64,000 bases of DNA. Origin: Candidatus Woesebacteria bacterium. GTDB lineage: Bacteria; Patescibacteriota; Microgenomatia; UBA8517. The stretch lies in contig JAGVAE010000001.1 in the NCBI GenBank assembly GCA_020060565.1, positions 2,671 through 66,670 on the forward strand. The letters run 5' to 3'. The stretch's first letter is position 1. Each line of letters begins with the position of its first letter. This document shows positions 2,882-26,900 of the stretch, one piece after another. Both the position numbers and the translations under genes were made by a program. The notes beneath the pieces were generated by a model that was not told the origin of the DNA, did not search any database, and saw only the letters and a list, made by a program, of their open reading frames with translations.

Positions 2882-2899
2882 TTTTCTGTACCTTGACTT

Positions 2900-3215
2900 T
2901 AGGTGCCTTTAAGGCACAAAAAAGAGCATCGCCATCGTTGGGTTCTCCTCGAAGTTGACTCGCGGAACTCGCCACGAATAGAGATGCTCTTTAAAAATTT
3001 GATCTAAGTATAAATTAGTATACTTAGTTCACTCGATTTGTCTTGCGGACAGGACAAAACTTGCAATTTTTACTATCAAGACAAATCGTAATTAGACTAA
3101 ATCTCTTAGAGAGGGTTGTCAAGCCCCTTTAAGTGAAGTTTTGAAATATGCACTTTGATTGTTGGTTTAAGGGACGGGTGGAATTTAGGGCAGGAATTCT
3201 ACCCGCTCCTTAATT
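2900..3215 (+). ncRNA. candidate structured RNA or long structured 5' leader (unclassified)
   Basis: A series of perfect stems in a non-coding stretch. GTGCC/GGCAC hairpin at 2902-2917. A 10-bp long-range stem AAAGAGCATC (2921-2930) / GATGCTCTTT (2983-2992). A 9-bp hairpin CTAAGTATA..TATACTTAG (3005-3028). A 12-bp stem CGATTTGTCTTG (3034-3045) / CAAGACAAATCG (3077-3088). A GGGTGGAATT..GAATTCTACCC hairpin at about 3172-3208. No family assigned. Confidence 0.3.
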
Positions 3216-3404
3216 TAATAATTGGGTGCATATTTTTTTGGAAATCGGACTGAAACCCCGCATAATGCGAAGCATATATGCTGGGGCGCTCCTAAGGAAA
3301 GCAAGTACTCACGCGTTTTTTTATGTCTTGTTCCTCTACCCATAGTTTGACTTTTTGGATTTTTCGTCGTATACTTCAGCCTTAAGAAATTTAGATATAA
3401 AAAT

Positions 3405-4748: not shown

Positions 4749-6016
4749 AGAAATTACTAACTAAAAACATAATCTCACTTATCATTGCACTTGTAATCGT
4801 ATTTATTGGTGCGGGAGTATATTATTTTACAAGTATTAAGGCTTCGGGGGCTGATTTTGCAGGGGGAAATATAGTTGATGCTAAAAATGTAACCGACGGT
4901 AATCCTTCATATATTGATCCTATTAGTGCTAAAGATGGAGATACTATAAGAATTAGGCTCCGTGTAATTAATCTTGGAACTGAACCTGCTACAAATACCA
5001 TTGCTAAATATGATTTAGGAAATGCGGCAAGCCCCAAAGCCAGTGTAGCTGCAGATGGTGCTTCTGAAAAAAGTGATTTTGTAAATATAAATCCAACAGG
5101 GGCTTCACTTAGTTTTATAGGTGGATCTGGCAAAAAGTATGGTCCAGTATGTCCTAGTGGATGTGCGATTGATGACACCATTGTTAGCTCTGGAGTGAAC
5201 TTGGGTACTGTTGAGGTTGGGGATAGTAACAGCTACCAACTTAGTATTGAGGCAAAAGTAGTTGGAACACCATCAGGGGGAGAAACTAAAGCTATATTTC
5301 GAAGTGGAAACATATTTGATGGGGGGGTGACTGGAGTGACTTGGGCAGATCCTGTAACAGCAAATCCTGGACAGGTTGTTGAATTCAGAGTAACTGTCGT
5401 AAATGAAGGAACAGTCGACGCAAAAAACACAATTGTTAAGGTAATGTTTCCAGGAAGTGCGGCAAATCCAATAGTTCCCACAATTTTTGTTAATGCAGAG
5501 GGAGTAGAGAAAGTTTCTGATACTTTTACAATCAATATTGCAGGAGGATCTAGCCAAAAACTAAATTATTGGGAAGGTCATGCAATCAAGTGGGGACCAG
5601 GTTGTACCAATGGTTGTTCACTTCCTGATAATGTTTATGTTGAGGGAGTTAATATTGGAACAGTTGCCCCTGGAGCTAACAATAGCTATCAAGTTGTTTT
5701 TAAAGCCTATGTAACGGGACAATCACCCACACCAACTGCGACTCCTACATCAACACCCACGGCTACACCAACTGCAACACCTACAGCTACACCAACCACG
5801 CCAACTCCTACTCCAACCGCAACACCTACGGCTACACCGACGTCAACACCAACCACGCCAACTCCCACTCCCACCCCAACAGCTCCTCCAGTTTTAGGGG
5901 CAACAACTCCTCCAGTATTACCAAAGACTGGATCAAATGATGTGTTTATCCTATTCGGGCTGGTTAGTACAATGGGGTTAGGCTTTTATATCTTCAAAAA
6001 GTTCAAATTAATTTAA
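4745..6016 (+). CDS. LPxTG cell-wall-anchored surface protein with DUF11-like repeat domains
   Basis: N-terminal TM/signal. Two similar ~130-aa modules, each ending in a CxxGC-type motif (GPVCPSGCAIDD / GPGCTNGCSLPD). A TPTATP linker. C-terminal LPKTG followed by a hydrophobic segment and a basic tail (KKFKLI), the canonical sortase sorting signal. Confidence 0.75.
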   Translation: MKKLLTKNIISLIIALVIVFIGAGVYYFTSIKASGADFAGGNIVDAKNVTDGNPSYIDPISAKDGDTIRIRLRVINLGTEPATNTIAKYDLGNAASPKASVAADGASEKSDFVNINPTGASLSFIGGSGKKYGPVCPSGCAIDDTIVSSGVNLGTVEVGDSNSYQLSIEAKVVGTPSGGETKAIFRSGNIFDGGVTGVTWADPVTANPGQVVEFRVTVVNEGTVDAKNTIVKVMFPGSAANPIVPTIFVNAEGVEKVSDTFTINIAGGSSQKLNYWEGHAIKWGPGCTNGCSLPDNVYVEGVNIGTVAPGANNSYQVVFKAYVTGQSPTPTATPTSTPTATPTATPTATPTTPTPTPTATPTATPTSTPTTPTPTPTPTAPPVLGATTPPVLPKTGSNDVFILFGLVSTMGLGFYIFKKFKLI

Positions 6017-9068: not shown

Positions 9069-9644
9069 ATGAAAAATCTTACCTTTAGCTTATATTCCCT
9101 TCCAAACACTGTTTTTACCACCCGTGAGATCGCCTTGATTCTTAGATGGGATGATCTAGATAAGATTAAGTCAAAGATCAATTATTATGTCAAAAAAGGT
9201 GTACTTAAAAAACTTAGAAGAGGACTTTTCGCAAAGAGTAATGGCTACGAGATTCTAGAAGCATCCAATAAGATCTTTACACCCTCTTATATAAGTCTGG
9301 AAACTGTATTACAAAAAGAGGGTGTAACCTTTCAAAATTATGACAGAACCATTTTTGTAATCAGTTATCAAACAAGGGAAATTGTTTTGGACGGGTTTAC
9401 AATTGTTTTTAAGAAAATTAAAGATGAAATACTAACCAATCTAGAAGGAATTAACACAGAAAACGGTTATTCGATTGCGGGTAAGGAGAGAGCATTTTTA
9501 GATGCCTTATATTTGTATAAAGATTATTATTTTGATAATTTAGATAATATAGATTTCGAAAAAGCGGAAAAAATTTTGCCAATTTACAATAGCAGAGCTG
9601 TTGAGGCAAGATTTAAAAAATATGTTAAATATCGCTTCTCATAA
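9069..9644 (+). CDS. AbiEi-type antitoxin (type IV TA, winged-helix transcriptional regulator)
   Basis: N-terminal wHTH resembling the AbiEi_4 domain (FTTREIALIL...YYVKKGVLKKLRRGLF). Immediately upstream of, and slightly overlapping, a nucleotidyltransferase toxin gene. Confidence 0.65.
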   Translation: MKNLTFSLYSLPNTVFTTREIALILRWDDLDKIKSKINYYVKKGVLKKLRRGLFAKSNGYEILEASNKIFTPSYISLETVLQKEGVTFQNYDRTIFVISYQTREIVLDGFTIVFKKIKDEILTNLEGINTENGYSIAGKERAFLDALYLYKDYYFDNLDNIDFEKAEKILPIYNSRAVEARFKKYVKYRFS

Positions 9645-10305
9645 ATTGGTAATGATAGATGTTCTTAAGGGAATTTATTCCGATATTTCTATCGGGTCGT
9701 TTATTGGATTTAAAGGAGATACGGCACTTTACCTCTTTTACAAACTACCTCGTTTCAGTGTCGACCTGGATTTTGATCTTCTTGACGAATCAAAGAAGGA
9801 AACTGTTTTTTCTAGAGTTTCCGAAATCTCTGAGAACATAGGTGAGCTTAGAGAAGGTAGGGAAAAATATTTCACACTCTTTTGGTTGATCAGTTACGAA
9901 AAAGGTAGAAGGCAGTTAAAAATTGAGATGTCAAAAAGAAATTTAGGATCATCCTATGAAGTAAAAAGCTACCTAGGACTTCCTGTTTTGATAATGAAGA
10001 AAGAGGATATGTTCGCAAACAAGTTAACAGCACTTTTGGGTAGAAAAGTACTTGTTAACCGTGATATTTTTGATATTTGGTTTATGGCTAAAAACAACTG
10101 GGATATTAATTCAGAGCTTTTGGAAAAAAGGACAAATATGCAACCGAAAAAGTATTTGCAAAAATGTATTGACCGTTTGGAAAAAGACCCTCCCAAAAGT
10201 ATTCTTAACGGATTGGGAGATCTACTGGATAACAAAACAAAAGACTGGGTGAAGAAGAATTTGATTAAAGATACCATCTTTTACCTAAAACTTCTGAGTG
10301 AGTAA
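9601..10305 (+). CDS. AbiEii/AbiGii-family nucleotidyltransferase toxin
   Basis: GFKGDTALYL...RFSVDLDFDL, the characteristic GGTAL / RxSxDLDF NTase motif of DUF1814/AbiEii. The real start is probably an internal Met near 9622. Confidence 0.7.
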   Translation: MRQDLKNMLNIASHKLVMIDVLKGIYSDISIGSFIGFKGDTALYLFYKLPRFSVDLDFDLLDESKKETVFSRVSEISENIGELREGREKYFTLFWLISYEKGRRQLKIEMSKRNLGSSYEVKSYLGLPVLIMKKEDMFANKLTALLGRKVLVNRDIFDIWFMAKNNWDINSELLEKRTNMQPKKYLQKCIDRLEKDPPKSILNGLGDLLDNKTKDWVKKNLIKDTIFYLKLLSE

Positions 10306-10433: not shown

Positions 10434-11525
10434 ATGGACGAAACGTTTCAAACACTTATAGAAATTTGGGAAGATATCAAAACTTTCTTTTTTGAATTAA
10501 CTAAATTTATTCTTAAATCTCTTCATTTGAGTTTTATTAAAGTTGAAGAAAGAAAGGGGATTGTGGTCAATGCACTTTATCGCCAAAGGGGAAAACTTTC
10601 CCAACGTCTAACCCATACAGGAATGGGGGCTTTAGCAGTACTGGGGGTTATGATTGCTCCTATTATTTCTCAAGAATTTCCAGGTACCAGTGTTAATCCT
10701 TGGCAAGTAACAAGTGCTCCTGCAGTTCTTTCCGCTTCAACCCAAGACCCAGGTCTTGATACAGAGATATCTAGTAAAGTAAGGGATAATATCATTAACT
10801 ATACTGTCTTGGATGGTGATACTGTTTCTTCTATTGCTGATAAATTTGGAGTATCTGCTGACTCGATTCGTTGGCAGAATAGCTTATCTGGGGACAAAAT
10901 AAAAGTAGGTCAGACTATTGAAATCTTACCCGTTACAGGTATTGCTCATAAAGTACAAAAAGGGGATACGGTTTATTCAATTGCTAAAAAGTACGACGCA
11001 GAAGCTCAGGCTATAGTTAACTTTCCTTTTAATACATTTGCAAACGATGAAACTTTTGAGCTTGCAATAGGGCAAACTGTAATAGTTCCTGATGGTGTTA
11101 TGCCAAAGGCGGCAGTTACACCTCGTATACGTCAAATTACCCCTTCTGCAGGTACTGTAGTGGCTTCAGGACAATTTGTATGGCCTACACAGGGAACAAT
11201 CTCTCAGAGATATTCTTGGTATCATCCTGGTATTGATATTGCCAATAATGCAGGCCCAACCGTGGTTGCGGCAGATTCGGGAAGAGTAGAGTATGCAGGT
11301 TGGGATGGATCAGGATATGGCAATATGGTTCTTATCGATCATGGTAATGGATTTAAGACCAGATACGGCCATTTAAGCCAAGTAATGGTAGTTTCGGGTC
11401 AAACTGTGGCTCGTGGAAATGCAGTTGGGAAAATGGGCTCCACTGGGCGTTCAACAGGAATCCACCTTCACTTTGAGATATATAAAGGTGGAACACGACC
11501 AAATCCACTTTTGTATTTGAAGTGA
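10434..11525 (+). CDS. LysM-domain M23 family metallopeptidase
   Basis: N-terminal TM, two LysM repeats (YTVLDGDTVSSIADKFGVS / HKVQKGDTVYSIAKKYD), then an M23 domain with HPGIDIA..., GYGNMVLIDHGNGFKTRYGHL and GSTGRSTGIHLHFEI motifs. Confidence 0.85.
   Translation: MDETFQTLIEIWEDIKTFFFELTKFILKSLHLSFIKVEERKGIVVNALYRQRGKLSQRLTHTGMGALAVLGVMIAPIISQEFPGTSVNPWQVTSAPAVLSASTQDPGLDTEISSKVRDNIINYTVLDGDTVSSIADKFGVSADSIRWQNSLSGDKIKVGQTIEILPVTGIAHKVQKGDTVYSIAKKYDAEAQAIVNFPFNTFANDETFELAIGQTVIVPDGVMPKAAVTPRIRQITPSAGTVVASGQFVWPTQGTISQRYSWYHPGIDIANNAGPTVVAADSGRVEYAGWDGSGYGNMVLIDHGNGFKTRYGHLSQVMVVSGQTVARGNAVGKMGSTGRSTGIHLHFEIYKGGTRPNPLLYLK
11482..11525 (+). repeat. direct repeat copy 1 (3' end of the M23 peptidase gene)
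   Basis: ataaaggtggaacacgaccaaatccacttttgtatttgaagtga. The 24-nt core caaatccacttttgtatttgaagt is identical to the copy at 12761-12804. Confidence 0.75.
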
Positions 11526-11531
11526 GAAATA

Positions 11532-12746
11532 TTAAATAATTGACCCTCCCCAAATGTAATTATCGAATTTTGGGGACAAGTTTCTACCAATTAGTTGGAT
11601 ACTTTTGACATTTGCAATAGATGCAATCTTCTTTAGATTTGAAAGGTCGTCACTTGTTGGTGTTTCTTTTGCTTCTGCGGCAAGTTTCCCATCTATAATA
11701 AAGTCTATCTCATTACCATTTTTAAGCGAATAATATTGAATTTGATTATTTCTTACCAACTGGTTATAAAGACTGTTCTCAAATTGAGAACCACTATTTA
11801 GATCAGTCAAAATATTCGCGATTCCTGTATCGCAAAAATAAAGTTTTCTGGATTTGACTATCTCGCGGCCGATATTTTTTGTAAAGACTCCGATGGTACT
11901 AATAAGATAGGTTTTTTCAAAAAAAGAAATATAATTTGCAACTGTCGGTCTGGATAACCCTGTAAGTCTTGACATTTTTGAATATTCGATTCTACTACCG
12001 ACCCTGGAGGCTAAAAGTTTTGCCAGATTATATAAATTTCTTTCGTCACTGAAATCAGCCAAGCTTTTTATGTCTATACTTACATAAGAGGAGAAAATAT
12101 CTTTTAAGTTGTCAATTTTTTCTTTCTCATTTTCCAGTAAAACTACTTGGGGGAACCCACCGAAGCGTATATATTCATTATAATAGGATGAGAGTCTACT
12201 ATATTCTAGTTTATCGAAAGTGCCATGTTTCCATTGAGAATCTGTAAAATTAACATTTTTAAAAGTTAAAAATTCACCAAAATCAAGCGGGTATAACTCA
12301 AAGATTTTTTTCCTGCCTGAAAGGGATTCAGAAAAAAGATTTTTTAGATAATATGAACTTGATCCTGTAACAATAAATTTAATTCCATAATGATCGTAAA
12401 GATATTTGATAGCACTTGGTGAATCTGGGGCGAGCTGAATTTCATCTATTGCAACAATCATATTTTCAGGCGATAGATTTTGTGAGATTAAATTGTTTCT
12501 GATCGCTTCATAGTTTTTCTCCTCAAATAACTCTCGGATATCTAGCCGTTGAAAGTCCAAATAAATTGAGTTTTTGTTAGGTAGATCGGACAAGAGCTGT
12601 TTAACTAGTGTGGTCTTTCCTGTTCTTCTCATGCCTGTCAATACCGTTACTTGTGGGGTTTTAGCATGGGAGAGGAGTTCTGGGTATATTTTTCGGGGAT
12701 ATATCATTGCAATTGATAGTTTACAAAAAGTATTACTTTTTGTCAA
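11532..12746 (-). CDS. AAA-family ATPase (AAA_14 + DUF4143 type)
   Basis: Walker A GMRRTGKTTL, Walker B IVAIDEIQ, and a C-terminal region typical of DUF4143 orphan ATPases. The ORF-track start is a TTG; the probable real start is the ATG at about 12708 (MIYPRK). Confidence 0.75.
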   Translation of the reverse strand: MTKSNTFCKLSIAMIYPRKIYPELLSHAKTPQVTVLTGMRRTGKTTLVKQLLSDLPNKNSIYLDFQRLDIRELFEEKNYEAIRNNLISQNLSPENMIVAIDEIQLAPDSPSAIKYLYDHYGIKFIVTGSSSYYLKNLFSESLSGRKKIFELYPLDFGEFLTFKNVNFTDSQWKHGTFDKLEYSRLSSYYNEYIRFGGFPQVVLLENEKEKIDNLKDIFSSYVSIDIKSLADFSDERNLYNLAKLLASRVGSRIEYSKMSRLTGLSRPTVANYISFFEKTYLISTIGVFTKNIGREIVKSRKLYFCDTGIANILTDLNSGSQFENSLYNQLVRNNQIQYYSLKNGNEIDFIIDGKLAAEAKETPTSDDLSNLKKIASIANVKSIQLIGRNLSPKFDNYIWGGSII

Positions 12747-12816: not shown

Positions 12817-15800
12817 CTAATTAGTTTCTGGAGTGAACTTTTCTGGGGAACCACCATTCGCAATATAGTCTAAAAATTTATATCTTTCGGGGCTGTTTTT
12901 TTCTAGAAATTCTGGAGCAGTCAAATAAAGAGCCATAGAGTCTGCTAAATCTTCCCAGGCTGCTCTCGTTAAATTAACTGATTTATCATAACTTTGTGCA
13001 TAGGGAGTGGGGGGCTTCTCGTTTAGAAGTTGATCATTTCTTCCATTGTAAAAGTAATTTATAAATGATGCTGGTAGGCTTCCGTTCACATATTTTCCAT
13101 TCTTATCAGTTTCATATTTAAGGGTATGAACAAACTCATGCACTAAAGAGGCTAATGGAACATCTTCCTTTTTTAGATATGAATCTAAACCTGGAACTCT
13201 CAAAAGATGACTTTGATAGAGGTAGTTATTATTAAAAGTAATACTAGTCTCAAGAGTTGACCCCTTGTTTGTGAGATCGTTGCCTGTTAAGCCGTAGTAA
13301 CCCTGACCCAAGTCATTTTCTCCGACTTTAATAATTTTGATTTTATTGCTCAAAAGTTGAGAAAAAGGGGCGAGATTGGTTAATGCTTTGGAGTAATTTG
13401 TTTTATCATTGGGACTAAGGCCGTATCCAGAGAGTTCTAGAGTTACGGTTTTATCTGCTTCTTTTTTCTTTGAATATACAACTTCAATTTTACTATCATT
13501 GATTGTTTTAATTTTTGAAGAAACAGTGTTTTTTGAGTTCTCAACAGAGAGGTTATTATTTTTAATCATTTGATTATTGGTAATTGTGTTTACAATTGAT
13601 TCAGCAATTATATCTGCACCATATTTGTTTGGATGAACACCGTCTTTACCAACACTTTTAGAAAGGTCATACCGACTCGCATACGAACTCCCCATAATTA
13701 CAGGTGAATCTGAAGTTGATATCTGTGAAGCTAACTCCGCGAATTTATTATTCAACTTTTCAGCATCCTCTGTATAGGGTAGACCTTTGTAAGAAAATTT
13801 CGGAACAGAAGTAATAACAACTTTTATATTAGGATTAACATTGTCACGAAGGTAATTAATAATATACTGCATATTAGGGATTATTTTGGTATCTATATCA
13901 TTTTTGTTAACCAAATCATTTATTCCAAACTGTAATACGACCAGATTAACATTTTTATCAAATTCTACTTTTTGTGGGTTTTTATCATAAAGCCACTCTT
14001 TAGCTTTTAATGCATTAACAATCGCGGCTGTAGAATATCCTGTATGACCTTCGGTTATTGTTCCTGCGGTAACTGATTTTTGGTTTCCTAAAAACTCTAT
14101 GTCATAGCCTGCTGCTTTAAGCTGTTCATACAGTGAATCAGATAGATAGCCTTGAGTTAGGGAATCTCCCAATATTAATACATTTGTTTTTGAGAAAGTA
14201 GGTTCCTCTTTCTTTGGTAGTTCTGGAACGGCTTCAGAAAATTGTTGTTGTTTTGAAGTCTCAACCGACGCTTCCCCTTTTTGTATTCTCTGGTTAGAAT
14301 CTTTTATCTTTTCATTCTGATCTTTATCAACGGATACAGGAAGTTTATCTGATGGGGCAGGGAAGATGGATTTAATCTGGTCAATTACTCCTTGCCATAG
14401 ATTTACAGAAAAGTCTATTGCTTTTGGAATTTCATTAGCTGTATTTTGTAAAATAGTTCTTCCCAAAATTGTTCCTCCCACTATATTGACAGCTGCCCCT
14501 ACGGCCAATTTACCATTACTTGTACCAAGGAAAGTTTTAAGATTGTCTGAAACCGTCGGTTTGACCTCAATTGGGACAGTTTTGGTATCAGCTTCAGAGA
14601 CAGATGTTTCTAGTGTTTTCGGAAATGTTGCAGATGGCTCGTCTGAAACTAATTTTTCAGGGAAAAGAGCCTTTGCTTCATCTAAGTTTATCTCTCGATA
14701 TGCAAACCGAGCTTTTGGTACACCATCGAGAGGATAGGATTCCAAACCAGGTATATACAAATATGGCTCTGATATTTTTTCACCAAAAGTGTTGGTGTAT
14801 ATTTGTTGTGCTGGTACTCTTATTTCGGTCATTGCATAAGGTCGAACCTCATAAATGTTTTGAATTTTTTCTATGGGAATTAGGTCTCTAACAATTACAT
14901 CTCCCAAAAAATCAATTTCAGGATTTGATGGTTTTTTAATTGATATGATATAAGAGGGTCTTTCAAATGTGGCCATAGCAAAATAACCCTCACCCTCAGC
15001 TGCATAACCTAAGGCGCGTTCGCTGTTTTGACTAAAATATATACTATCAGTATACCCAACACTTTTCATAATTGGTCCAGATTCAAGTATGTTGTTTTGA
15101 AGTATGGATTGCATTCCTTCAAAATTAATTCCCCTAAAGATAAGTTCTTCTCCATCAATTGTCGAAGGAATGTTTGAATCACCGAGAACGTGGCCATACA
15201 CATCACTAACCAGCGGTTTATATCCAGAGTCTGCAAGGAACTGAATTTCTCCATTTTCTACAACAGATAGTGAGCGATCGTAAAAAAACTCGCCGTTTTT
15301 GAGAATGTTGGAATTTGTTTCAGGGGTCAAAACTATCCTTTTTGTTTCATTATTCCATTTGCCGTTCCAATGGGATGCATAACGTTCAAGATGTTCTCCC
15401 ATATCAAAAACATCACCCATCTTTCCGCCCTTGAGATTTTTTATAGGTAAATCATTAATCCAAGTTTTTTCATTGGTCATCTGGGGTGGTGCAACTGCTA
15501 GATAGGGTTCATCTGGAGCTACTAATGTTCCCACCTCTTCGTGTATTGGAACTACCGGGGTAGTGGGATTTTCTGTTCTTAATTTTGGCAGCCATCCTCG
15601 TTTATCTTTAATATTTTCATTCCACCAACCTTTAGTATTGATTACTGCGGGGGATTGGGTAATGTTTTGTGTGGTTTCTGTTAGTTTATTCCAAGTACTG
15701 GTAAAAATGTTTTGATTTTGAAGGGGAACTATGCCATTTGTATTTCTATTGATTGGTTTGCCTGTATTGATGTTAAATTTACCTTTTTCGTCTTTGAATA

Positions 15801-18729
15801 TAGTGACTATTGGAGTATCACGACGAGTGTTTGTATCAGAACTTAATATACTATCATTATAAGTAATTCGTAAATTATCCTCCAAAACAATATTATTTGC
15901 TTTTACCCAAGCATTATTTTCTTTATCGAAGTAGTAAATGGGACTGTCGTTAGTTCTTTGCAAAACATAAGTTCCATCAGTGGTTTGGCCAACAATTAGT
16001 CCTTCAGCTTCTTCTGCTTTCTCAAGAATATTTTTACCATTAACTTTATGTACCTTTTTTAGTGGAACTTTAGGGGTGGTGTCAGTGGCTACCCTTGCGT
16101 TTTCTAGATAATAACTAAATGATGGCACCCCTATTGAATGGTTTCCATTATAAAATATACTTACAGTGTTATCAGCTTGAATTTTACTTCCAGCTTGAAT
16201 TTTTACAGATTGACCTGGAGCGCACGACCTTCCATCAATTATTATTGTTCTTCCTGTTGTATTTTCAACACTTACTCCATCTCTAGATTTGGTGACTTTA
16301 ACCAACTGAGGATCTGACAAAGATGATTCATGTATTCTAAATTGGCTGTCTGGAGAATTTCCCAAACTATATGTTGTTGTATCAGTCCCTATTTTTCCAG
16401 GTATACCTGGTCGGTTGGGTTCAAGGGTGACTGGCACCATTGAATCTGTGGCTTTTGAAGGTTCAAAGGTAAGATCTGAGGACTTTAATTGGATAGGTTG
16501 GGGATTAGTTGGTTCTTGTGAAACCTTAGGCTTTCCAAGATTATCTACAAAACCCACAATCCTTGCCTGTGCATTCTGAGCAGTTTCTTTTGACTTATCC
16601 CAAGCTTGAGCAAGTGGGGAAGGGAAAGTTGCTGGAATCTCTTTAGGTGCAAAAAGCATATCAGATTTATTTGTAATTTTTATGGGTGCATAGGGTACAA
16701 GTTGGCTTTCATCAGGCATGACTGGACGGGGATTTGATGCAGCTGCTGCCAATGGGTCGGATGGGTGTATCTCTGGGATTCCCTTTGATATAGATGGAAT
16801 ATCAACTTCAGATATCTTACGGAGAGGATTTCCTATTGATAATTGTCCTTGTTTATAATCTATAACCCCAAAACCAGCATCAGCAACCACTGCAACAATT
16901 GAACCTGCGCAATCTAAAACTGATCTTCCTTCTTGAGTGCAGGTGGTAATGGCTGTTGGAATATCAACGACTAAGTTTATACCTGATACTCCAGTATTTA
17001 AACTTCGTGCTAAATTAAGTGATTGAACAGTGGAGGCGGTATTGGAAAATGTTTTTATTAAATAGTTGGCTGTTCCTAAATTTGTCCAAGATAAAGCAGC
17101 AAGACCTGTTTGCTTCCAAGCCTCAAGCGAGCCAGGGTTTTCCACTTGAGCCACGGTTGCATCAACGGTCTGTTGAACGGACGATATTGCTCCCAGATGC
17201 ATAAATCCTGTTGCCACAGCACTTCCAACACTTCCCGCAGTAAAAACAGCCGGTGCAGCAAACACACCCCCCAATGCTGCGGCAGTAATCTTAAACTCAT
17301 TTGTTATTTGGGTGTTCCAATTTTTACATTCAGTACTATTTGGATTATTTTTGCAGGCTTCTGTACCTTCCAAATAAACTTGTGAGAGTTGGGGTGTAGT
17401 AAAATTTTGTCCGATTTGGTTTGTATTTCCCGGAAGGGGATTGTAGGCATTACAAACTCCTCCAAGACATATTTTCTGATCGCTCTTTGCAACTTGAGTT
17501 TCTATCAAAGGTGGGGTATTGATTTGGGGTGGTTTTTCCTGACAAATACCATTGGATGCGTATCCTGATTCACAATACGAAGCGTATTGAACACGTGTCC
17601 CGATTGGATATTTAACCATTACACTTCCTTGTTCGTTTGAAGTGATTGAAGCTGTCTGAGCTTTTGGTACTTCTTGTTTTTTGGTTGATGTCTCTCCGAC
17701 GAATTTACCCGTACTTAGGTCTAAATTTCCAGATGTTGTAACGAGATATGTTTTACCCTGAGCGGGGACTATTTGTGTTTGTGTAGATGGAATTGTAGAA
17801 ACTGTTATTCGTGTGGTCTTGTTTGTTGTTGGGTCATAGGTTGTGGTGGTTGTGTTGGTTACTTGATCTCCTCCTCCTGCAACACCCAGACTTCCATAAG
17901 TGGTTGTGACTGTGGTTGTTGGTTTTTTGTTTTCGATATCGTCTATTCTTCGTAAAGCAGCTTCATTTCTGGATTGTTGTACTTTTTGTGTTGCTTCTGC
18001 CTCAGCTGCAGCTTTATCAGCCATTTGTTTCTCATAATTGGCCTTATTTACAGTTGCTAATGATGTCTCTACATATGTATTAGGATCGTTGCCTGTTCCT
18101 GCGATTGGATAATAAATTTCGCCGATACGATAATAACCTGCGATTTCTACTCCAGGAGCGCACCCTCCTCTTGTGAGACAATCATATCCTGCTCCATTAA
18201 GAGGGGCTTCGGTGTTAACAGCATCTTGACCATGATAACCACCATTGATGGTTTTTACCTTGTTAATAGATGTTGTAGTGGAAACAGTTTTGGTATAAGT
18301 TACATTGCCTTTATGGCAGACATTGCCTTCACAAACTTCTTCACATTCTTTTTGTCCGACTCCACCACATTCATTACTACTGGAACTTTTGGCCGCTTCT
18401 GCAGCTGCTTTGTTGGCATTACTATCAATTTCTATAGCTCTTGGGTCTTCATTGGCCAGTTGGGCTCTATAACTTGCCATAGCCTCTGCATCATTTGGAA
18501 TCTGTTTGGGGGCTCCTGTCATGGGATCTGTAACTGTTATTGTTCCAGCTGCTTTTGGTGAAAAAATTTCTTTTATGTTGGGATTAATTGTTACAGATAA
18601 GATGGTTAGGGTAGAGAAGACTAAAAAGCCAATAAGCGTAATACTTAATATGTCAGCTATTCCACGCTCAAAAAACCCAACAGGTTTAGGCATTAAATAT
18701 ACTTTATTAAATCGCGTGAAAAATAGCAA
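12817..18729 (-). CDS. giant (1970 aa) membrane-anchored multidomain surface protein with an SGNH/GDSL hydrolase domain and a C-terminal HExxH motif
   Basis: N-terminal TM (ILSITLIGFLVFSTLTILSVTI), a Cys-rich segment (NECGGVGQKECEEVCEGNVCHKGN) and Thr-rich tracts. SGNH blocks: I ILGDSLT (14161-14175), II GHTGYS, III FGINDL, V DGVHPN (about 13651-13664). LVHEFVH at 13123-13140. The ORF-track start is a TTG. Confidence 0.8.
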   Translation of the reverse strand: MLFFTRFNKVYLMPKPVGFFERGIADILSITLIGFLVFSTLTILSVTINPNIKEIFSPKAAGTITVTDPMTGAPKQIPNDAEAMASYRAQLANEDPRAIEIDSNANKAAAEAAKSSSSNECGGVGQKECEEVCEGNVCHKGNVTYTKTVSTTTSINKVKTINGGYHGQDAVNTEAPLNGAGYDCLTRGGCAPGVEIAGYYRIGEIYYPIAGTGNDPNTYVETSLATVNKANYEKQMADKAAAEAEATQKVQQSRNEAALRRIDDIENKKPTTTVTTTYGSLGVAGGGDQVTNTTTTTYDPTTNKTTRITVSTIPSTQTQIVPAQGKTYLVTTSGNLDLSTGKFVGETSTKKQEVPKAQTASITSNEQGSVMVKYPIGTRVQYASYCESGYASNGICQEKPPQINTPPLIETQVAKSDQKICLGGVCNAYNPLPGNTNQIGQNFTTPQLSQVYLEGTEACKNNPNSTECKNWNTQITNEFKITAAALGGVFAAPAVFTAGSVGSAVATGFMHLGAISSVQQTVDATVAQVENPGSLEAWKQTGLAALSWTNLGTANYLIKTFSNTASTVQSLNLARSLNTGVSGINLVVDIPTAITTCTQEGRSVLDCAGSIVAVVADAGFGVIDYKQGQLSIGNPLRKISEVDIPSISKGIPEIHPSDPLAAAASNPRPVMPDESQLVPYAPIKITNKSDMLFAPKEIPATFPSPLAQAWDKSKETAQNAQARIVGFVDNLGKPKVSQEPTNPQPIQLKSSDLTFEPSKATDSMVPVTLEPNRPGIPGKIGTDTTTYSLGNSPDSQFRIHESSLSDPQLVKVTKSRDGVSVENTTGRTIIIDGRSCAPGQSVKIQAGSKIQADNTVSIFYNGNHSIGVPSFSYYLENARVATDTTPKVPLKKVHKVNGKNILEKAEEAEGLIVGQTTDGTYVLQRTNDSPIYYFDKENNAWVKANNIVLEDNLRITYNDSILSSDTNTRRDTPIVTIFKDEKGKFNINTGKPINRNTNGIVPLQNQNIFTSTWNKLTETTQNITQSPAVINTKGWWNENIKDKRGWLPKLRTENPTTPVVPIHEEVGTLVAPDEPYLAVAPPQMTNEKTWINDLPIKNLKGGKMGDVFDMGEHLERYASHWNGKWNNETKRIVLTPETNSNILKNGEFFYDRSLSVVENGEIQFLADSGYKPLVSDVYGHVLGDSNIPSTIDGEELIFRGINFEGMQSILQNNILESGPIMKSVGYTDSIYFSQNSERALGYAAEGEGYFAMATFERPSYIISIKKPSNPEIDFLGDVIVRDLIPIEKIQNIYEVRPYAMTEIRVPAQQIYTNTFGEKISEPYLYIPGLESYPLDGVPKARFAYREINLDEAKALFPEKLVSDEPSATFPKTLETSVSEADTKTVPIEVKPTVSDNLKTFLGTSNGKLAVGAAVNIVGGTILGRTILQNTANEIPKAIDFSVNLWQGVIDQIKSIFPAPSDKLPVSVDKDQNEKIKDSNQRIQKGEASVETSKQQQFSEAVPELPKKEEPTFSKTNVLILGDSLTQGYLSDSLYEQLKAAGYDIEFLGNQKSVTAGTITEGHTGYSTAAIVNALKAKEWLYDKNPQKVEFDKNVNLVVLQFGINDLVNKNDIDTKIIPNMQYIINYLRDNVNPNIKVVITSVPKFSYKGLPYTEDAEKLNNKFAELASQISTSDSPVIMGSSYASRYDLSKSVGKDGVHPNKYGADIIAESIVNTITNNQMIKNNNLSVENSKNTVSSKIKTINDSKIEVVYSKKKEADKTVTLELSGYGLSPNDKTNYSKALTNLAPFSQLLSNKIKIIKVGENDLGQGYYGLTGNDLTNKGSTLETSITFNNNYLYQSHLLRVPGLDSYLKKEDVPLASLVHEFVHTLKYETDKNGKYVNGSLPASFINYFYNGRNDQLLNEKPPTPYAQSYDKSVNLTRAAWEDLADSMALYLTAPEFLEKNSPERYKFLDYIANGGSPEKFTPETN

Positions 18730-19532
18730 TGGATATTAGAGGACTATTGACACAAGCTAATAAAAAAATGATACTTAAATATATGGAACCTGCCGTTGAG
18801 TCTAGATTTACTGCAAATTATTCTTCTGATACTAAGCCCACGATGTCTAATGGAGTTAAAAAGATTATAACATATGGTTTAATAGCCATTGTTTTATTGG
18901 TTATTTGGACGTATGTGAATTCTCCCTTAGTGGTCACGGTTACAGGATCGGGGGAGGTTAGTGTTCCTGCTACAAATGCCACAGTTAGTTTTTCCTTGTC
19001 TGCTAATGATGGGTCAATTGGTGCTGCAGTTTCTGCAGTTCAAGCCAAAGCTGAGCTAATGAGAGCCTATTTGCAGGAAAATGGGGTTTCTGAAGGGGAC
19101 ATTGCAGTTTCTCAGGTTACTGCTGTTCCTGCTGCCCTTATTACAGAAGGAGTAGGGGGATATCAGGCAACAGTTTCAATGGCTGCTAAGACATCTCATG
19201 TAACAGGAGTAAGTAATTTAGTTTCTGATCTTTATACCAATGGGGCATTGGTAGTTGCCCAGCCTATTTTATCTGTTGAGAATGAAGATAAATTGGACAA
19301 AGAAGTGTTTGCAACAGCCATGAAAGATGCAAATGCTCAGGCAGCAAAGATAGGGAAAACAAATTGGAAGTTTATTAGAAAGATTATTTCAATTGACCAG
19401 GCAACATCTGGTACTACATCAACTTCAACTACTAAGGCAGATACACTAACTACAGCAAATGATTCAGTGGCTGCAACAAATGGAGTATTTAAAATTGTTA
19501 AAGCAGTCTCCGTTAGCTACAAGATGTGGTGA
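18729..19532 (+). CDS. SIMPL/DUF541-like membrane-anchored protein
   Basis: N-terminal TM, then a domain with VTGSGEVSVPATNATVSFS and a C-terminal pattern resembling the SIMPL (26-kDa periplasmic immunogenic protein) family. It is divergent from the giant gene, and the two start positions abut. Confidence 0.6.
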   Translation: MDIRGLLTQANKKMILKYMEPAVESRFTANYSSDTKPTMSNGVKKIITYGLIAIVLLVIWTYVNSPLVVTVTGSGEVSVPATNATVSFSLSANDGSIGAAVSAVQAKAELMRAYLQENGVSEGDIAVSQVTAVPAALITEGVGGYQATVSMAAKTSHVTGVSNLVSDLYTNGALVVAQPILSVENEDKLDKEVFATAMKDANAQAAKIGKTNWKFIRKIISIDQATSGTTSTSTTKADTLTTANDSVAATNGVFKIVKAVSVSYKMW

Positions 19533-19540
19533 GATAGATT

Positions 19541-19777
19541 TTGTGGTACAATTTAGGCATGACACCCCAGTTTATTCGTAAATATTTTTGGGATATTAAG
19601 ATTGAAAAGGCTGATCCAAAAAAACATCCAGAGTATTTTATTAGTAGGATTTTGGAGTTTGGAGATAGAAAGTCTTTTGGCTGGCTGAAGTCTTTTTTTG
19701 GGATGGAGAAGATTCGTAAAGTTGTAAAATCTAGAAAATTGACACCTAAATCTCAAAATTTCTGGCAAAATGTTTGA
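19541..19777 (+). CDS. small hypothetical protein (78 aa), putative partner of the downstream nucleotidyltransferase
   Basis: Overlaps the next ORF by 8 nt, a TA-like organisation; I recognise no wHTH. Confidence 0.4.
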   Translation: MWYNLGMTPQFIRKYFWDIKIEKADPKKHPEYFISRILEFGDRKSFGWLKSFFGMEKIRKVVKSRKLTPKSQNFWQNV

Positions 19778-20378
19778 AAATACACTTTCTTCCAATAGTC
19801 TTAAGTTTATTAAAGAAATCAAATCTGATAGTTTGCCAAATGATTCCTATCTAGGAGGGGGGACGGCAATTGCTCTTCAAATTGGCCACAGAAAGTCTCT
19901 GGACTTGGATTTTTTTACTCAAACTCAATTTAATGAGACTCAATGGCAACAAAAGTTGGAAGAAGACATTGGGTTTGACCTGATTCAAAAAGATTGGCAG
20001 ACATTAGTTGGAAGCGTGCAAGATATCAAGTTTTCTCTTTTTTATTATAAACATGCCTTGATTGATAAAACTAAGGATTATTACAATATTAAATTAGCCT
20101 CACTTGAAGATTTATCTGCAATGAAATTGGACACTGTCATTTCCAGGGGAACAAGGCGGGATTTAATAGATATCTATTTCCTGGCACAAAAATTTTCCAT
20201 TCCTGGGATGTTTGAATTCTATGATAGAAAGTTTGGAAACTTTAAAGACCGTGAGATTATGATCAAAAAAGCTCTTATTTATTTTGAAGACGCAGAGAAG
20301 GATGAGACCCCTGATATGCTTATTCCTTTCGATTGGAATGAGTTAAAAACATTCTTCAAAAAGGAAATTGAACTTTAA
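19770..20378 (+). CDS. short AbiEii-like nucleotidyltransferase (DUF1814-type)
   Basis: YLGGGTAIALQIGHRKSLDLDFF, the same NTase motif as the other AbiEii copies. At 202 aa it is short for the family. Confidence 0.6.
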   Translation: MFENTLSSNSLKFIKEIKSDSLPNDSYLGGGTAIALQIGHRKSLDLDFFTQTQFNETQWQQKLEEDIGFDLIQKDWQTLVGSVQDIKFSLFYYKHALIDKTKDYYNIKLASLEDLSAMKLDTVISRGTRRDLIDIYFLAQKFSIPGMFEFYDRKFGNFKDREIMIKKALIYFEDAEKDETPDMLIPFDWNELKTFFKKEIEL

Positions 20379-20394
20379 ATAGGTTGTAAGTAAG

Positions 20395-20465
20395 GGCTTG
20401 TAGGTAAGTGGTATACCGTATCATTCGCATTGATAAATCGGCGGTTCGATTCCGCCCAAGTCCAC
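20395..20465 (+). tRNA. tRNA-like element with a CGC (Ala-type) anticodon and a defective acceptor stem; probable tRNA pseudogene or att-site remnant
   Basis: By hand it folds as GGGCTTG-TA-GGTA/AGTGGTA/TACC-G-TATCA/TTCGCAT/TGATA-AATC-GGCGG/TTCGATT/CCGCC-CAATCCA-C. The D, anticodon and T arms are canonical (T-loop TTCGATT), but acceptor pairs 1:72 (G:A) and 4:69 (C:T) are mismatched. Confidence 0.4.
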
Positions 20466-21196
20466 TATTGTAATTTTGACTTCAGTTTTTGGATGAGTAG
20501 ATTCTTCAAATTTTTTGCAATTTCTCTTTGTGATCTGGGTAAAAATTGTGTTAAATCCATATCTAGTTTGGCTTGAGGATAGGATTCAATCTTTTTTAAT
20601 AAATCTGAGATATTAACATCCTTTTTAAGAGGAATTCCTTTTTCCAGTAGAAACCAGACATCAAAAGAATCCCTTCCTTTATTTCGATCCAGAAGAGCCT
20701 CAATTTTTTCTGCAAGAATTTCCTTATTTGAAAAATGTGATATTAAAGGAAACATGGGGATTGGGAATTTGGTTATTAGGGGAGAAACTACAATCTCTGG
20801 TGTATTTTTGATTTGGGTAAAATCCAAACGAATAGTTAAGGGGAACTTAAATCCAACTGGCTGATATTTTATGCGGTAACGGATACCGTTTTTGCCAGAA
20901 TACAAAAGAAGTATTTGCATTTTTGGCATCTCTTTTTGTATGGCTTGTTCCAACTTTTCCAATATTTGTTTAATCTGTTCTTTGTTGTAGGTGGTAGAGA
21001 AATCTAGATCTTCTGAGAATCGTGAGGAACCCAACAGCAATCTAATAGCTGTTCCACCCTTGAAATAAATTTTATTTGCTTTTGCATCTTGGTAAAGATA
21101 ACTCAAGAATAAAAGCTGAAAATGTTCGCGTATGATAGTGAAAGTATCTATTTGATAGTCTTTTGCTAGAGCATCTATTTGTTCTTTAGTAATCAT
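20465..21196 (-). CDS. AbiEii/AbiGii-family nucleotidyltransferase toxin
   Basis: YFKGGTAIRLLLGSSRFSEDLDFS motif; 243 aa. Its stop codon abuts the 3' end of the tRNA-like element. Confidence 0.75.
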   Translation of the reverse strand: MITKEQIDALAKDYQIDTFTIIREHFQLLFLSYLYQDAKANKIYFKGGTAIRLLLGSSRFSEDLDFSTTYNKEQIKQILEKLEQAIQKEMPKMQILLLYSGKNGIRYRIKYQPVGFKFPLTIRLDFTQIKNTPEIVVSPLITKFPIPMFPLISHFSNKEILAEKIEALLDRNKGRDSFDVWFLLEKGIPLKKDVNISDLLKKIESYPQAKLDMDLTQFLPRSQREIAKNLKNLLIQKLKSKLQ

Positions 21197-21783
21197 TTGA
21201 TGATTTTCTTAATAATCTTAGACATCTTTTTATTATCAAATCTTCTAGTGTAAATAACAAGCTTTTGCCTATCAATTCCAGATAATTCCATTTCATCAAA
21301 ATCTAAATTCCGCAATCCCTTTAGTCCTAAATAAATATAATCCAGAAGTGCCTTTTCGGGGTCGGCAATTAAAAAGTCATCTTTTTTTTCGTACCCCCAA
21401 TATAACTTGTTTGCTATTTGTGAATATTGGAACTCCTTTTGTTGAATATTGATATTTTTACTTTTTTTGACAGATATGGATGTTATTTGGTAGGGGAAAC
21501 CAGTAATTATTCCATAAAATGATAGTGCAGATTCGAGAGAAATGTAGGAGGGTTGGAGGGTAAAATTAGCTATTAGAAAGTCATCTGGCGGATTAAGTAA
21601 AAAACTGTATTTACCATTTGTTAATTTCTGGATTAGACCTTTTTTTTCCAGTCTTTGAATCCTTTTGTATAGGTTCAAACTATTTGAAATATCAAACAAT
21701 CTTCCAAAATCTGTTAATGAAAATAGAGAAATTTGTTTTTCTTGCAAAACTTTAATAATATCGGTTGCAGAATACGTTCCCAT
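21193..21783 (-). CDS. AbiEi-type antitoxin (winged-helix)
   Basis: N-terminal wHTH (LYKRIQRLEKKGLIQKLTNGKYSF). Its stop overlaps the toxin start by 4 nt (ATGA). It resembles the 9069-9644 protein (SYISLE...L motif). Confidence 0.7.
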   Translation of the reverse strand: MGTYSATDIIKVLQEKQISLFSLTDFGRLFDISNSLNLYKRIQRLEKKGLIQKLTNGKYSFLLNPPDDFLIANFTLQPSYISLESALSFYGIITGFPYQITSISVKKSKNINIQQKEFQYSQIANKLYWGYEKKDDFLIADPEKALLDYIYLGLKGLRNLDFDEMELSGIDRQKLVIYTRRFDNKKMSKIIKKIIK

Positions 21784-23918: not shown

Positions 23919-26900
23919 TTACTGTACTTGTACTATCCACCAATTGAACTTTACATCAATATCGATAGGATTCGTAAAACCGACTACAAATTGTCCATTC
24001 TCTTTACTTTTTACATACAAAACATTGTTAAGAGTTGGGGAGGTAGGGGTTACATAGACCAAAGTTAGATCTGTAACTTTGGGATTTTTGATGATTATCT
24101 CGCTTGTTTCTGCAGGAACAGTTGCCTGTCCAATCATTGAATTTGTAGTAATAACTCCATCTATAATAGTGCCTGAGACTGTCGCGTCGGAAGCGGCAAC
24201 AATTAGTTCGGGGGTGGTAACAGAATTAAGTGTTGCTGATCCTGTTGCATTGATTATTTTGGCATTAAGCTCTAAAGTTGTAATTTTTCCTGCAACATAC
24301 AAGTTTCCAGCCATTCTCATGTTTCCTTGGGTATCAATTGAAATAAGCCCTCCCATAATTTCAACTGGTGCCATGGCGAGAGATTGAATTTGGAGTGGGG
24401 CAGAAAGACTATTAATAGTATTGCCGTTAAGTCCAATTACCAAGTCGCTTCCTAGGGTTAAGGAATCTGCAATGGAAACTGAGCTCATTGCAGCATTACC
24501 TGTTACAAATAAATCATTTGTAATAAGTTCTGCTATATTTGCACTTCCACTTGCAGTTAAATTGGCTCCTGCAGTTGCAGTAAAAAGAAGAGATTGATCT
24601 GCTGACACTTGGGCAAGTAAAGCTTCAATTTCATCAATGTTTTGTGATCTGACGACTCCACTAAATGAGGCATTACCCATATTGTCAATTGAGGCTACTT
24701 CTGACCCTTCTGAGTTTTGAATTGCAAATTTACCTGATGGAGTAGCTTCCGACCCAATTCTTACTGTTACATCTGTTTCATCAGCAAGAGGGGAGATAAG
24801 TGGGGTTTGAATCCTCTGGGCTATTAATTTATCAGTATCAACTACACCTGCTTTGATACTGGCAATGAGCGCCTGGCTGAAGATTCCAATGTTATTTATT
24901 GTTTCCCCTGTAGCATCTTTAATTTCGTATGCAATTCCGGCCGCATTTACTTTTGCATTTAATAAGTAGGCATTTATATCAGAAAGGATTGGAGTTAAAG
25001 AACTTCCGTTTCCTATAAAAATCATTACATTGTCTTTTTGGTATGTTGGATCCCAAGGTTCGAGAGCGGTTCCAATTGATTTTTCACCCAATACTGCTTT
25101 TTTAGCACGTCCTGGGGTAGAGGAGGAGGTGATTGGATCTCCTGTTTTAATTGCTGCCGAGTCTGTTGCAACTTTGACAGGAACTCGTCCAACAAGAGCC
25201 AGAAGTCTTCTATCTTCAGCTTCAATTCCCAAGGTTTGACCTGCTTTGGTTGAAATTACACCAATAAGTCCAGGGTCACGAATTCCATTTGACTTTCTAA
25301 GAATTGGTACTCCGTAATCGTCCAAGTTGCCACTAACCGAGACTACATCTCCTGAAACAATATCTTGATTGTCTACTCCATAATACTCAGCCAAGTCAGC
25401 TCCGTATACAACTGCGTCAAGCCTAAGTTCCTGATTTTGGCCAGTGTAGTTATATAACCTGACATTATTTGCATCTGTTTGAGTTATTTTGTAGCTGTTG
25501 TTATAACTAAACTGAACATTGTTTACCTGGGGCTGGAAACTTGTATTGGTGGTAGTAAATATTGCTCTATACTGCAAGTAATTGTTGGGGGTTGAGACAA
25601 TTGGTGAACCACTACTTACAGTCATAGCTTTTTCAGCTTTGAAATTATCAAAGTGAATTGTATTCCATGGGTTATTCAAGTTTGTTACTCTAAGTTTGGT
25701 AACACCGTCCTTAGAAGTTGAAACTATATCCGACAAATCCCAATATACTTTTTGCCAAGTACTTGTGGCGTCAATTGTTACAGTTTCTTCTTGTTCTGTT
25801 CCTGCAGCTTCTCCAAAACCAAGCTTTACAGTATTTCCAGATGAGGTTGCATATACCCAAGCAGTTAAGTAGTCATATCCAGAGATGTCAGTTGCACCAA
25901 TAGTTGCTTCTGCGTAACCTCCTCCTTGGGCGGTGTTAACAAATTGAGTTGTGTTTCCCGCAGTTCCTTCATCTTCATCTTCAAATTGATCTACATTCCT
26001 TGTTACTGTGCCATCAGCAACTGTTGCACTAGATCCTGTCCAATCTGTGTGGGTGTTGGCATCTTGAAGGGAAAGGTAATTGGTTGAGGCTATCGCAGGT
26101 TTCCAAGCTTCCCATGTTCCATCAGTTGGATTGGTTGAATTTCCAGTCCTTGTTTGGAATTCTACTTTGCCCCAAGCAGAAGGGGTAGCTTCCCATCTAA
26201 GATCACTTAATGAAACTGCGTTTGGTGTACTAATTACTCCCGAATGATACAAACCATATGGATAGTATGGTTGAACTGTATAGGCTGCAGTGGGGGAGTT
26301 GGTTGAACCTGTATAAGAGGTTGTGTAGTAAATAGCTGTACGTCCTTTGCCTCCCGCACCACCCGCAACAGGTAAACTAGCTCCTCCCGCACCACCCGAT
26401 CCATTTGTTGCAGATACTAAGTTTGTACCTAAAGTAACCGTACCAGCAGATAATTTAACAGATCCTCCAGCTCCACCTCCACCTCCAGCACTCCAATTTG
26501 AACCTGCACTACCGTTTGCACCATTTGACGAGACGGTTCCGCTTACTGTAACACTTGCTGCTGAGATTGTAACGATTCCTCCTCCCGCACCTCCAAGTCC
26601 ACGGGTATCGGAAGAATACTGTCCTGCTGCACCTCCACCCGACCCGAACATAAGATCGGCAAGTGCTGCATCTCCATAAGTTCCACCACCACCCCCACCT
26701 CCAGCTCCTGATGCACCTCCATTACCTGAGGTATTGGTTCCTCCATTTGATCCATTATCTCCTCCATAACCATAAGTTCCGTAACCACCACCTCCACCTG
26801 CGCGACCTCCAGAGTTTTGATCTCCTAATCCCCCTCCTCCTGATCCTCCAAGGGCGGCAGAACCTGTGCCTCCTGCAGGATCTCCACCACCTCCACCACC

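Follow-up and report, generated by a model that had tools for sequence, protein, structure and literature searches.

The window analysed here, i.e. a 64,000-nucleotide stretch of a Candidatus Woesebacteria bacterium (GenBank assembly GCA_020060565.1, contig JAGVAE010000001.1, positions 2,671 to 66,670 of the forward strand), contains on its reverse strand a giant gene whose product combines a predicted N-terminal membrane anchor and a Cys- and Thr-rich stalk with several enzyme-like modules. The gene forms a single unbroken open reading frame (ORF) at 12817..18729 (-) and has 1970 codons when counted from a TTG at 18729, the length given in a preliminary description of this locus. The ATG at 18693 is more likely to be the start, yielding 1958 residues plus stop, because that product is identical to the database entry P0001 and its N-terminus aligns with those of two relatives that share the scaffold, the protein P0002 and an ORF of locus L010 (MPKPVGFF... 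in the window protein, MPRQHRF... and MPRKYRF... in the relatives, all in register). The public annotation of P0001, made by the Joint Genome Institute (JGI), reads 'lysophospholipase L1-like esterase', a label that covers only ~10% of the 1958 residues. All residue numbers below follow the 1958-residue numbering, and the coordinates were verified by translation. The parts of the protein are as follows:

12817..18693 (-), whole coding sequence, 1958 residues plus stop from the ATG; frame open upstream to the TTG at 18729
18583..18654 (-), N-terminal signal anchor, residues 14-37; sole segment predicted to insert on its own
18316..18369 (-), Cys cluster, residues 109-126, with 4 Cys in 18 residues
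17584..18240 (-), conserved scaffold domain (GYDC..GGCAPG, GTGNxPxTY..TSLATV) with a Thr-rich tract, residues 152-370
16861..17289 (-), Gly/Ala-rich, moderately hydrophobic region, residues 469-611, ending in the Cys pair C585/C595
15538..15633 (-), Trp-rich inter-module linker (KGWWNENIKD..LP..NPTTP), residues 1021-1052; 48% identity to a linker repeated in P0002
14659..15531 (-), probable ADP-ribosyltransferase (ART)-like module, residues 1055-1345 (homologs, AlphaFold2, Foldseek)
14452..14508 (-), short Gly-rich hydrophobic helix, residues 1396-1414, just before the C-terminal enzyme cassette
13594..14184 (-), SGNH/GDSL esterase domain, residues 1504-1700 (Pfam, alignment to 5b5s)
12820..13506 (-), putative gluzincin metallopeptidase-like domain of the lethal-factor/PPEP type, residues 1730-1958 (family hidden Markov model (HMM), AlphaFold2, Foldseek)

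A C-terminal gluzincin-like domain

The preliminary description had noted a HExxH motif about 130 residues from the C-terminus, in a region resembling small zincins. The motif, HEFVH at residues 1852-1856 (13126-13140), is the only HExxH in the protein, with 0.008 expected from composition, and in fact lies 106 residues from the C-terminus; the zincin-type assignment itself held up. Scanning 1.84 billion representative proteins with HMMER gave 8 matches, i.e. the protein itself and 7 relatives, several of which are very long and two of which contain the domain twice. In the 10 aligned domain copies H1852, H1856, T1896, Y1898, E1914, D1915, L1922, Y1923 and two Pro are invariant, and E1853 is conserved except in one misaligned row, which still holds HELAH. 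The resulting family pattern, HExxH ... TxY (T1896-x-Y1898, 13000-13008) ... ED[FL]xD..LY (E1914-D1915, 12949-12954), is that of a gluzincin with the Glu ligand on a later helix. An AlphaFold2 model based on the family alignment reached a predicted local distance difference test score (pLDDT) of 80 and a predicted TM-score (pTM) of 0.84, the helices of HExxH and ED scoring 88-96: HExxH is found in helix 113-130 of the model (pLDDT ~88) and ED in helix 179-196 (pLDDT 91-96). Lying in the invariant ED motif of this confidently modelled helix, E1914 is a candidate for the third zinc ligand.

Searching the PDB with this model using Foldseek returned anthrax lethal factor structures first (1pwu, 1j7n, 1pwp; E 2.4-4.5e-4, probability 1.0, query-normalised TM-score (TMq) 0.41-0.44), followed by the Pro-Pro endopeptidase PPEP-3 (E 0.011) and then M1 aminopeptidases. 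At the sequence level, the family profile matched the zinc metallohydrolase lipoprotein 9urd with all three motifs aligned (E 0.021), and family members matched Pfam ATLF (2 of 10 copies, best E 2.5e-4, all sub-threshold), Peptidase_Mx1 (0.0084) and Peptidase_M90. The window's own domain gave no Pfam match even at E up to 10, and a PDB search with the single C-terminal sequence gave nothing useful. Since this domain matches no Pfam model, we name residues 1730-1958 M34-like by fold and motif and not a demonstrated member of ATLF, with putative activity. The small-zincin model DUF4157, which the preliminary description had proposed, was tried and dropped: it gave no match to the window's domain and is absent from the families matched by the 10 copies; the domain is a ~230-residue gluzincin that appears closest to lethal factor and PPEP.

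With these enzymes (MEROPS M34; Pfam ATLF PF07737) the domain shares the HExxH helix, a downstream helix with the candidate Glu ligand and a conserved Tyr ahead of it. In the shortest family members the Tyr stands 7-8 residues before the Glu, as it does in lethal factor and PPEP-1, whereas in the window copy the spacing is 16 residues, via an insertion of ~9 residues. Further differences are the low identity to lethal factor (~11%), the motif ED[FL]xD..LY..P, which is specific to the window's family, and the location of the domain inside giant multi-domain proteins. PPEP homologs include secreted as well as membrane- or wall-anchored forms (PMC8610288). The gluzincin family was not found in 2.9 million viral contigs.

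The esterase and gluzincin form a conserved cassette

Directly upstream of the gluzincin in the protein, residues 1504-1700 constitute an SGNH domain with all catalytic blocks, as judged from Pfam and alignment. Both Pfam models score above their cut-offs (Lipase_GDSL_2, residues 1507-1694, E 4e-14, 53.9 bits versus 32.9; Lipase_GDSL, E 2e-10, 41.5 bits versus 23.6). The complete block set that had been read from the sequence earlier was borne out: because GDS (S1511, 14161-14163), EGHTG, GIND (N1592, 13918-13920) and DGVHPN (D1684/H1687, 13633-13644) pair with the same motifs (EGHxG and GxND among them) in the acetyl esterase 5b5s, the catalytic Ser, Asp and His align to the family. By sequence, the solved structures nearest to it are acetyl esterases of the CE3 type: 5b5s and 5b5l reach E 9e-6 when a single sequence is used as query and 2.4e-13 when a profile of two sequences is used, and 2vpt reaches E 4.9e-7. 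These esterases have the same four blocks, with Ser, Gly, Asn and Asp/His aligned. The domain would be a CE3-like acetyl esterase. Unlike the CE3 esterases, it is a module of a 1958-residue anchored protein and is fused to a gluzincin. It was also the sole domain found when the whole protein and eight segments of it were searched against Pfam, NCBIfam, PHROGs and PADLOC. The segments 13600-14200 and 12817-13200, to which the preliminary description had assigned the two enzymes, are right by translation.

Scanning genomes with the gluzincin profile yielded four loci. In L002 (CAYIXE010000002.1, from a metagenome-assembled genome (MAG) labelled Gammaproteobacteria), the frame 2-20641 (+) is open throughout 20.6 kb, so that the ORF has at least 6880 residues and runs off both ends of the locus. 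It aligns to residues 1486-1954 of the window protein with 34-35% identity over ~470-514 columns, all catalytic motifs, including those of the SGNH domain, being kept, and it has the SGNH domain followed by the gluzincin (placed by BLAST alignment) in the same order. Pfam finds an intein splicing domain and SGNH in this ORF, together with sub-threshold matches to LPD3, LCP (just upstream of the SGNH-gluzincin stretch) and a protein-kinase-like stretch. In L003, L005 and P0003 the gluzincin is preceded by a beta-lactamase-like domain, in P0003 also by VanW, and in L002, L003 and L005 a strong internal transmembrane (TM) helix (Kyte-Doolittle mean 2.1-2.6) stands just N-terminal of the enzyme cassette. 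The gene flanking the L003 ORF encodes PBP1a and is closest to the enzymes of Pseudomonas, Haemophilus and Acinetobacter, and for this reason the MAGs look gammaproteobacterial. P0003 (4445 residues) was seen to contain two gluzincin copies alongside Beta-lactamase2, VanW and SecA_DEAD.

Taken together, sequence conservation identifies the esterase and the gluzincin as a conserved two-enzyme cassette, in which an esterase and a putative protease move as a pair among giant proteins from different lineages. The partner domains (beta-lactamase-like, VanW, LCP) point to cell-wall chemistry, be it the producer's own or foreign. That these recurring partners are all envelope enzymes is the main basis on which we place the likely substrate of the gluzincin in the cell envelope.

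A probable ADP-ribosyltransferase-like module in the middle region

For the middle ~800 residues the preliminary description had recognised no domain. This still applies to residues 640-1035, but not to residues 1055-1345, which probably adopt an ART-like fold. Five stand-alone homologs of this module (P0010-P0014, 297-370 residues) show 33-43% identity over >90% of its length, and the module also occurs inside the L010 ORF (34% identity to residues 1035-1338). Invariant in the six sequences are F-R-G-x-N (R1187, 15133-15135) and Y-E-x-R-P (E1282, 14848-14850), as well as [YF]-F, Y-A-A and F..PS. The AlphaFold2 model (pLDDT 73) matched the DUF952 protein 2o0q best among PDB structures (Foldseek E 0.009, probability 1.0, target-normalised TM-score (TMt) 0.63, root mean square deviation 3.0 Å), with weaker matches (E 0.04-0.6) to pertussis toxin S1, mosquitocidal toxin (MTX), PARP16 and DarT, and also to CARDS toxin. 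DUF952 and Pertussis_S1 both belong to the ADP-ribosyl clan of Pfam (PMC7955679). Among the viral models of BFVD the best match (E 1e-7) is an unnamed protein; among the lower matches are proteins of Bacillus phage G, large phage proteins of the MuF and ParB types, and an Alt-like ADP-ribosylase.

The order of elements in the model, i.e. a strand ending in FRG, a helix, a strand-helix pair and a long strand with YE, fits an ART of the R-S-E type, and the predicted fold resembles those of DUF952 (2o0q) and the R-S-E toxins. It departs from the ART families in having a single Glu instead of ExE, a middle Ser that is not conserved, and an extra N-terminal beta subdomain (residues ~1075-1175). No sequence-level match to any ART family was obtained with Pfam on segments or with a PDB search using the ART-like profile, and the family was not found in the 2.9 million viral contigs. 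Directly downstream of one stand-alone homolog, in locus L009, lies a 463-residue ORF (2489-3880, +) that contains an 'AFRGI' motif and may encode a partner protein.

The anchor and stalk are conserved, the modules are exchanged

The N-terminal TM anchor claimed in the preliminary description was recovered at residues 18-36, the only strongly hydrophobic segment of the protein (Kyte-Doolittle mean 2.23). On a Hessa-type biological scale its insertion energy is -1.36, and no other 19-mer falls below zero. Other hydrophobic segments (residues 469-503, 593-611 and 1396-1414) range from +3.9 to +7.0 on that scale. A polytopic topology as the default was rejected, as no internal hydrophobic segment is predicted to insert autonomously. 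K3 and R10 precede the anchor on its N side, which suggests an N-in signal anchor with ~1920 residues outside; the enzyme modules would then be extracellular.

Beyond the anchor, the Cys-rich knot and Thr-rich tracts described earlier were found again, with 4 Cys in residues 109-126 and, after them, five pairs of Cys that lie close together, and a Thr content of 22% in residues 201-300. All 15 Cys lie within residues 109-824, for which the chance under a uniform spread is 2e-6; the remaining 1134 residues, including all recognisable enzyme modules, are free of Cys.

When 5.8 billion proteins were searched through a word index, the full-length query retrieved only the protein itself and P0002 (2252 residues). 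P0002 shares the anchor and the GYDC..GGCAPG/GTGNxPxTY domain (P0002 residues 55-269; 34% identity over ~220 residues, E 5e-20; 40% in a MAFFT alignment), the Gly/Ala-rich hydrophobic region with a Cys pair after it, the Trp-rich linkers and the short Gly-rich helix before the last module (its residues 1978-1996). Both the SGNH domain and the gluzincin are missing from P0002, which carries instead two or three modules that look kinase-like by eye, and a C-terminal module whose weak PDB matches are CdiA toxin domains (E 0.014). A degenerate kinase module at residues 860-960 of the window protein was considered and dropped, an HMM of the three kinase-like modules of P0002 giving a best domain E of 0.76. 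The third scaffold member, the L010 ORF (1181-5221, +, Ga0172379_10029050; 1346 residues), has the same anchor, 36 Cys that all fall within residues 52-491, the Gly/Ala-rich region, the ART-like module and, at its end, a linker of the P0002 type; it likewise has no SGNH domain and no gluzincin. The Gly/Ala-rich region thus has counterparts at the same place in both relatives (Kyte-Doolittle peaks of 1.25-1.74 in the window protein), and Cys are restricted to the scaffold in 3/3 family members. Scanning metagenomes with the N-terminal scaffold gave no match.

The gene of P0002 is divergent to a SIMPL/DUF541 gene (locus L001) that is 64% identical to the one in the window. As these neighbours are 64% identical and the giants align only over ~220 residues at 34%, the two genomes would be fairly close and the giants would have diverged by module replacement. 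Judged from these comparisons, the scaffold relatives carry different modules, with a conserved N-terminal part and exchanged enzymes.

Genomic context

The GC content of the giant gene equals that of the window (37.5%), and its surroundings are ordinary bacterial chromosomal genes, such as those for RadA, Rho, LeuRS, ArgRS and M16 and M32 peptidases. Neighbouring genes include:

10434-11525 (+), M23 peptidase gene with two LysM domains, 1.3 kb from the giant gene
11532-12746 (-), AAA_14/DUF4143 ATPase gene, directly downstream of the giant gene
18783..19532 (+), SIMPL/DUF541 gene, divergent neighbour of the giant gene, 64% identity to its counterpart in L001
21834-23873 (-), gene of a Wzy_C (O-antigen ligase-like) protein with TPR repeats

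The SIMPL/DUF541 gene probably starts at codon 19 (M19, nt 18783) of the listed ORF 18729-19532, a start taken from the alignment with the L001 homolog, and this would leave ~90 nt of divergent intergenic DNA up to the ATG of the giant gene. Three AbiEii toxin genes (9069-10305, 19770-20378 and 20465-21783) flank the region, with AbiEi-like partners present for at least two of them, and a tRNA-Ala(cgc) gene lies in their midst at 20394-20465.

Further along the window, a second giant ORF of 2993 residues (23919-32900, -), unrelated to the 1958-residue protein and with no Pfam match above threshold, has three repeats ~270 residues apart ('GD[LM][LI]YA ... LGT[HN]T.GNYV' at residues 659, 920 and 1197) and may encode a fibrous surface protein. 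On the same strand and 5 nt upstream of it ends a 171-residue ORF (32906-33421, -). Of a phage-type integrase it has just the SAM-like N-terminal domains, so that its product may be either a shortened integrase or a DNA-binding protein in its own right. Two adjoining ORFs at 3405-4748 (+, 447 residues) and 4745-6016 (+, 423 residues) had no Pfam match at E up to 1e-5.

A proposed surface-anchored array of enzymes

We favour a reading in which the protein is a surface-anchored stalk with an exchangeable enzyme array that acts on a cell envelope, and we hold it with belief and doubt in about equal measure. The protein would be type-II-anchored, with its N-terminus inside the cell and ~1920 residues outside, and would consist of two parts: a conserved scaffold of TM anchor, disulfide-rich and Thr-rich stalk, Gly/Ala-rich hydrophobic region and Trp-rich linkers, and a set of Cys-free exchangeable modules, namely the ART-like module (1055-1345), the CE3-like SGNH esterase (1504-1700) and the zinc endopeptidase of the lethal-factor/PPEP type (1730-1958). 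The stalk would hold the array out beyond the cell surface; the esterase might strip O-acetyl groups from glycans, either peptidoglycan or a surface polysaccharide, and the adjacent gluzincin might cleave peptides or surface proteins of the same envelope, both working as one cassette. Module swapping among relatives would fit diversifying selection at a cell-cell interface. Confirming the observation of the preliminary description, our analysis partly supports its interpretation as a host-surface or cell-wall modifying effector: activity, substrates, a direction against another (host) cell and an episymbiotic lifestyle are all inferred, and the 'host' as target is an assumption.

Several further points weigh against this reading. 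The TM-scores to lethal factor are modest and the profile match to 9urd is borderline; in the ART-like module S, A or G can stand where the middle Ser would be, and the fold matches in the PDB have weak E-values (0.009-0.1). ADP-ribosyltransferases depend on NAD+, and one would not expect to find it outside the cell, which is awkward for a purely extracellular array. LCP, beta-lactamase-like and VanW domains are typical of the cell's own wall metabolism. Finally, the ~400 residues between 640 and 1035 have no assigned module.

The difficulty with NAD+ would be relieved if the protein were a contact-dependent multi-effector toxin resembling CdiA or MARTX, in which the scaffold attaches to a cell next to it, the Gly/Ala-rich hydrophobic segments insert into the membrane of that cell and the modules are threaded through to reach the interior or the surface of the target; the ART-like module would then use the cytosolic NAD+ of the target, and esterase and protease would damage its envelope. 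Consistent with such a toxin are the toxin relatives of the ART-like fold (pertussis S1, MTX, CARDS), the Cys-free state of the 1134-residue module part compared with the Cys-rich stalk, which recurs in the L010 ORF and P0002, the position-conserved hydrophobic regions that are not autonomous TM segments, the variation of C-terminal modules among relatives and the weak likeness of the last P0002 module to CdiA toxin domains. Like polymorphic toxins (CdiA, MARTX, Rhs/LXG), the family combines a conserved N-terminus with exchangeable C-terminal enzyme modules, which also occur free-standing or in unrelated giants. However, several modules stand in series here rather than a single terminal toxin, and no LXG, Rhs, PAAR, TPS or RTX trafficking, repeat or pre-toxin domain was found with Pfam and NCBIfam in the whole protein or its segments. 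Nor is there a conserved immunity gene directly downstream, where the window has AAA_14/DUF4143 and L001 has an unrelated 130-residue ORF, though a cryptic one might lie elsewhere. In addition, SGNH and M34-like enzymes normally work outside cells, and the similarities to toxin domains are below significance. We regard the toxin as a modest possibility only.

The anchoring of the protein in the producer's own membrane is also what one would expect of a housekeeping scaffold, whose esterase would de-O-acetylate the cell's own peptidoglycan or polysaccharide and whose peptidase would trim stem peptides or proteins of the surface as the cell grows and divides. The fusion of the gluzincin in relatives to LCP, beta-lactamase-like and VanW domains, which are usually own-wall domains, agrees with this, as do the M23 and LysM peptidase gene at a distance of 1.3 kb and the Wzy_C-type gene nearby. 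Yet such enzymes are normally conserved, whereas the positional relative P0002, next to a neighbour gene of 64% identity, is without both enzymes; the gluzincin family, of which 1.84 billion proteins yielded 8 representatives, is extremely rare, and a long stalk with an ART-like module would be unexpected in wall housekeeping enzymes. A housekeeping role seems distinctly unlikely to us.

Highly improbable is a polyvalent protein of a mobile element, i.e. a multi-enzyme protein that a phage or conjugative element would transfer along with DNA so as to overcome the recipient cell. In its favour, the L002 giant that shares the cassette has an intein and a sub-threshold match to LPD3 (a polyvalent-protein domain), the ART-like model matches MuF-type and ParB-type large phage proteins in BFVD, and the region contains an integrase fragment, a tRNA and several toxin-antitoxin genes of the AbiE type. 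Against it, neither the gluzincin nor the ART-like family occurs in the viral contigs searched, and the protein has no significant PHROG match (best E 0.049) and no PADLOC match. An N-terminal anchor and disulfide-rich stalk are ill-suited to a cytosolic protein that is packaged or transferred; moreover, another genome has the SIMPL neighbour as well, and the GC content of the gene is that of the window.

The surface-anchored array also has parallels among giant proteins. Giant TM/SecA proteins of Omnitrophota ('archaeovorins', West-Roberts et al.) have been implicated in cell-wall degradation (bioRxiv 10.1101/2023.11.21.568195), and large membrane proteins have been described in Vampirococcus, a predatory CPR (Candidate Phyla Radiation) bacterium (PMC8080830). 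Like the window protein, these giants are long, membrane-associated and divergent, mix hydrolases with peptidases and have been proposed to serve attachment and cell-wall digestion; moreover, P0003, which shares the gluzincin, carries the SecA_DEAD typical of the Omnitrophota giants. Unlike the latter (>30,000 residues, SecA_DEAD, many TM helices), the window protein has 1958 residues, one autonomous TM segment, a distinct scaffold and no SecA match. It is a shorter, differently organised relative of the giant-protein theme.

Somewhat more speculatively, the window protein, P0002 and the L010 ORF could represent an undescribed contact-dependent delivery system of a small-genome, low-GC bacterial lineage, a proposal that we consider doubtful. 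If it were true, a Cys-rich anchored stalk would precede a Gly/Ala-rich region whose insertion into membranes is conditional, and a string of Cys-free, swappable effectors would be carried into or onto a partner cell without known toxin-trafficking domains. The effectors so far would be ART-like, acetyl-esterase, lethal-factor-like protease, kinase-like and papain-like modules, and the SGNH-gluzincin pair would be a mobile 'wall-opening' cassette, shared across phyla with giants of >6800 residues.

Large, membrane-anchored proteins that evolve fast are the main candidates for the means by which ultrasmall or host-dependent bacteria take hold of other cells and break into them, and almost none of these proteins has an assigned chemistry. 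For the protein described here, candidate catalytic residues can be named for three modules (S1511/D1684/H1687; H1852/E1853/H1856/E1914; R1187/E1282), and two families not covered by Pfam, the rare lethal-factor-like gluzincin and the ART-like family, have been defined. The conserved scaffold with its swapped modules offers a starting point for finding more effectors.

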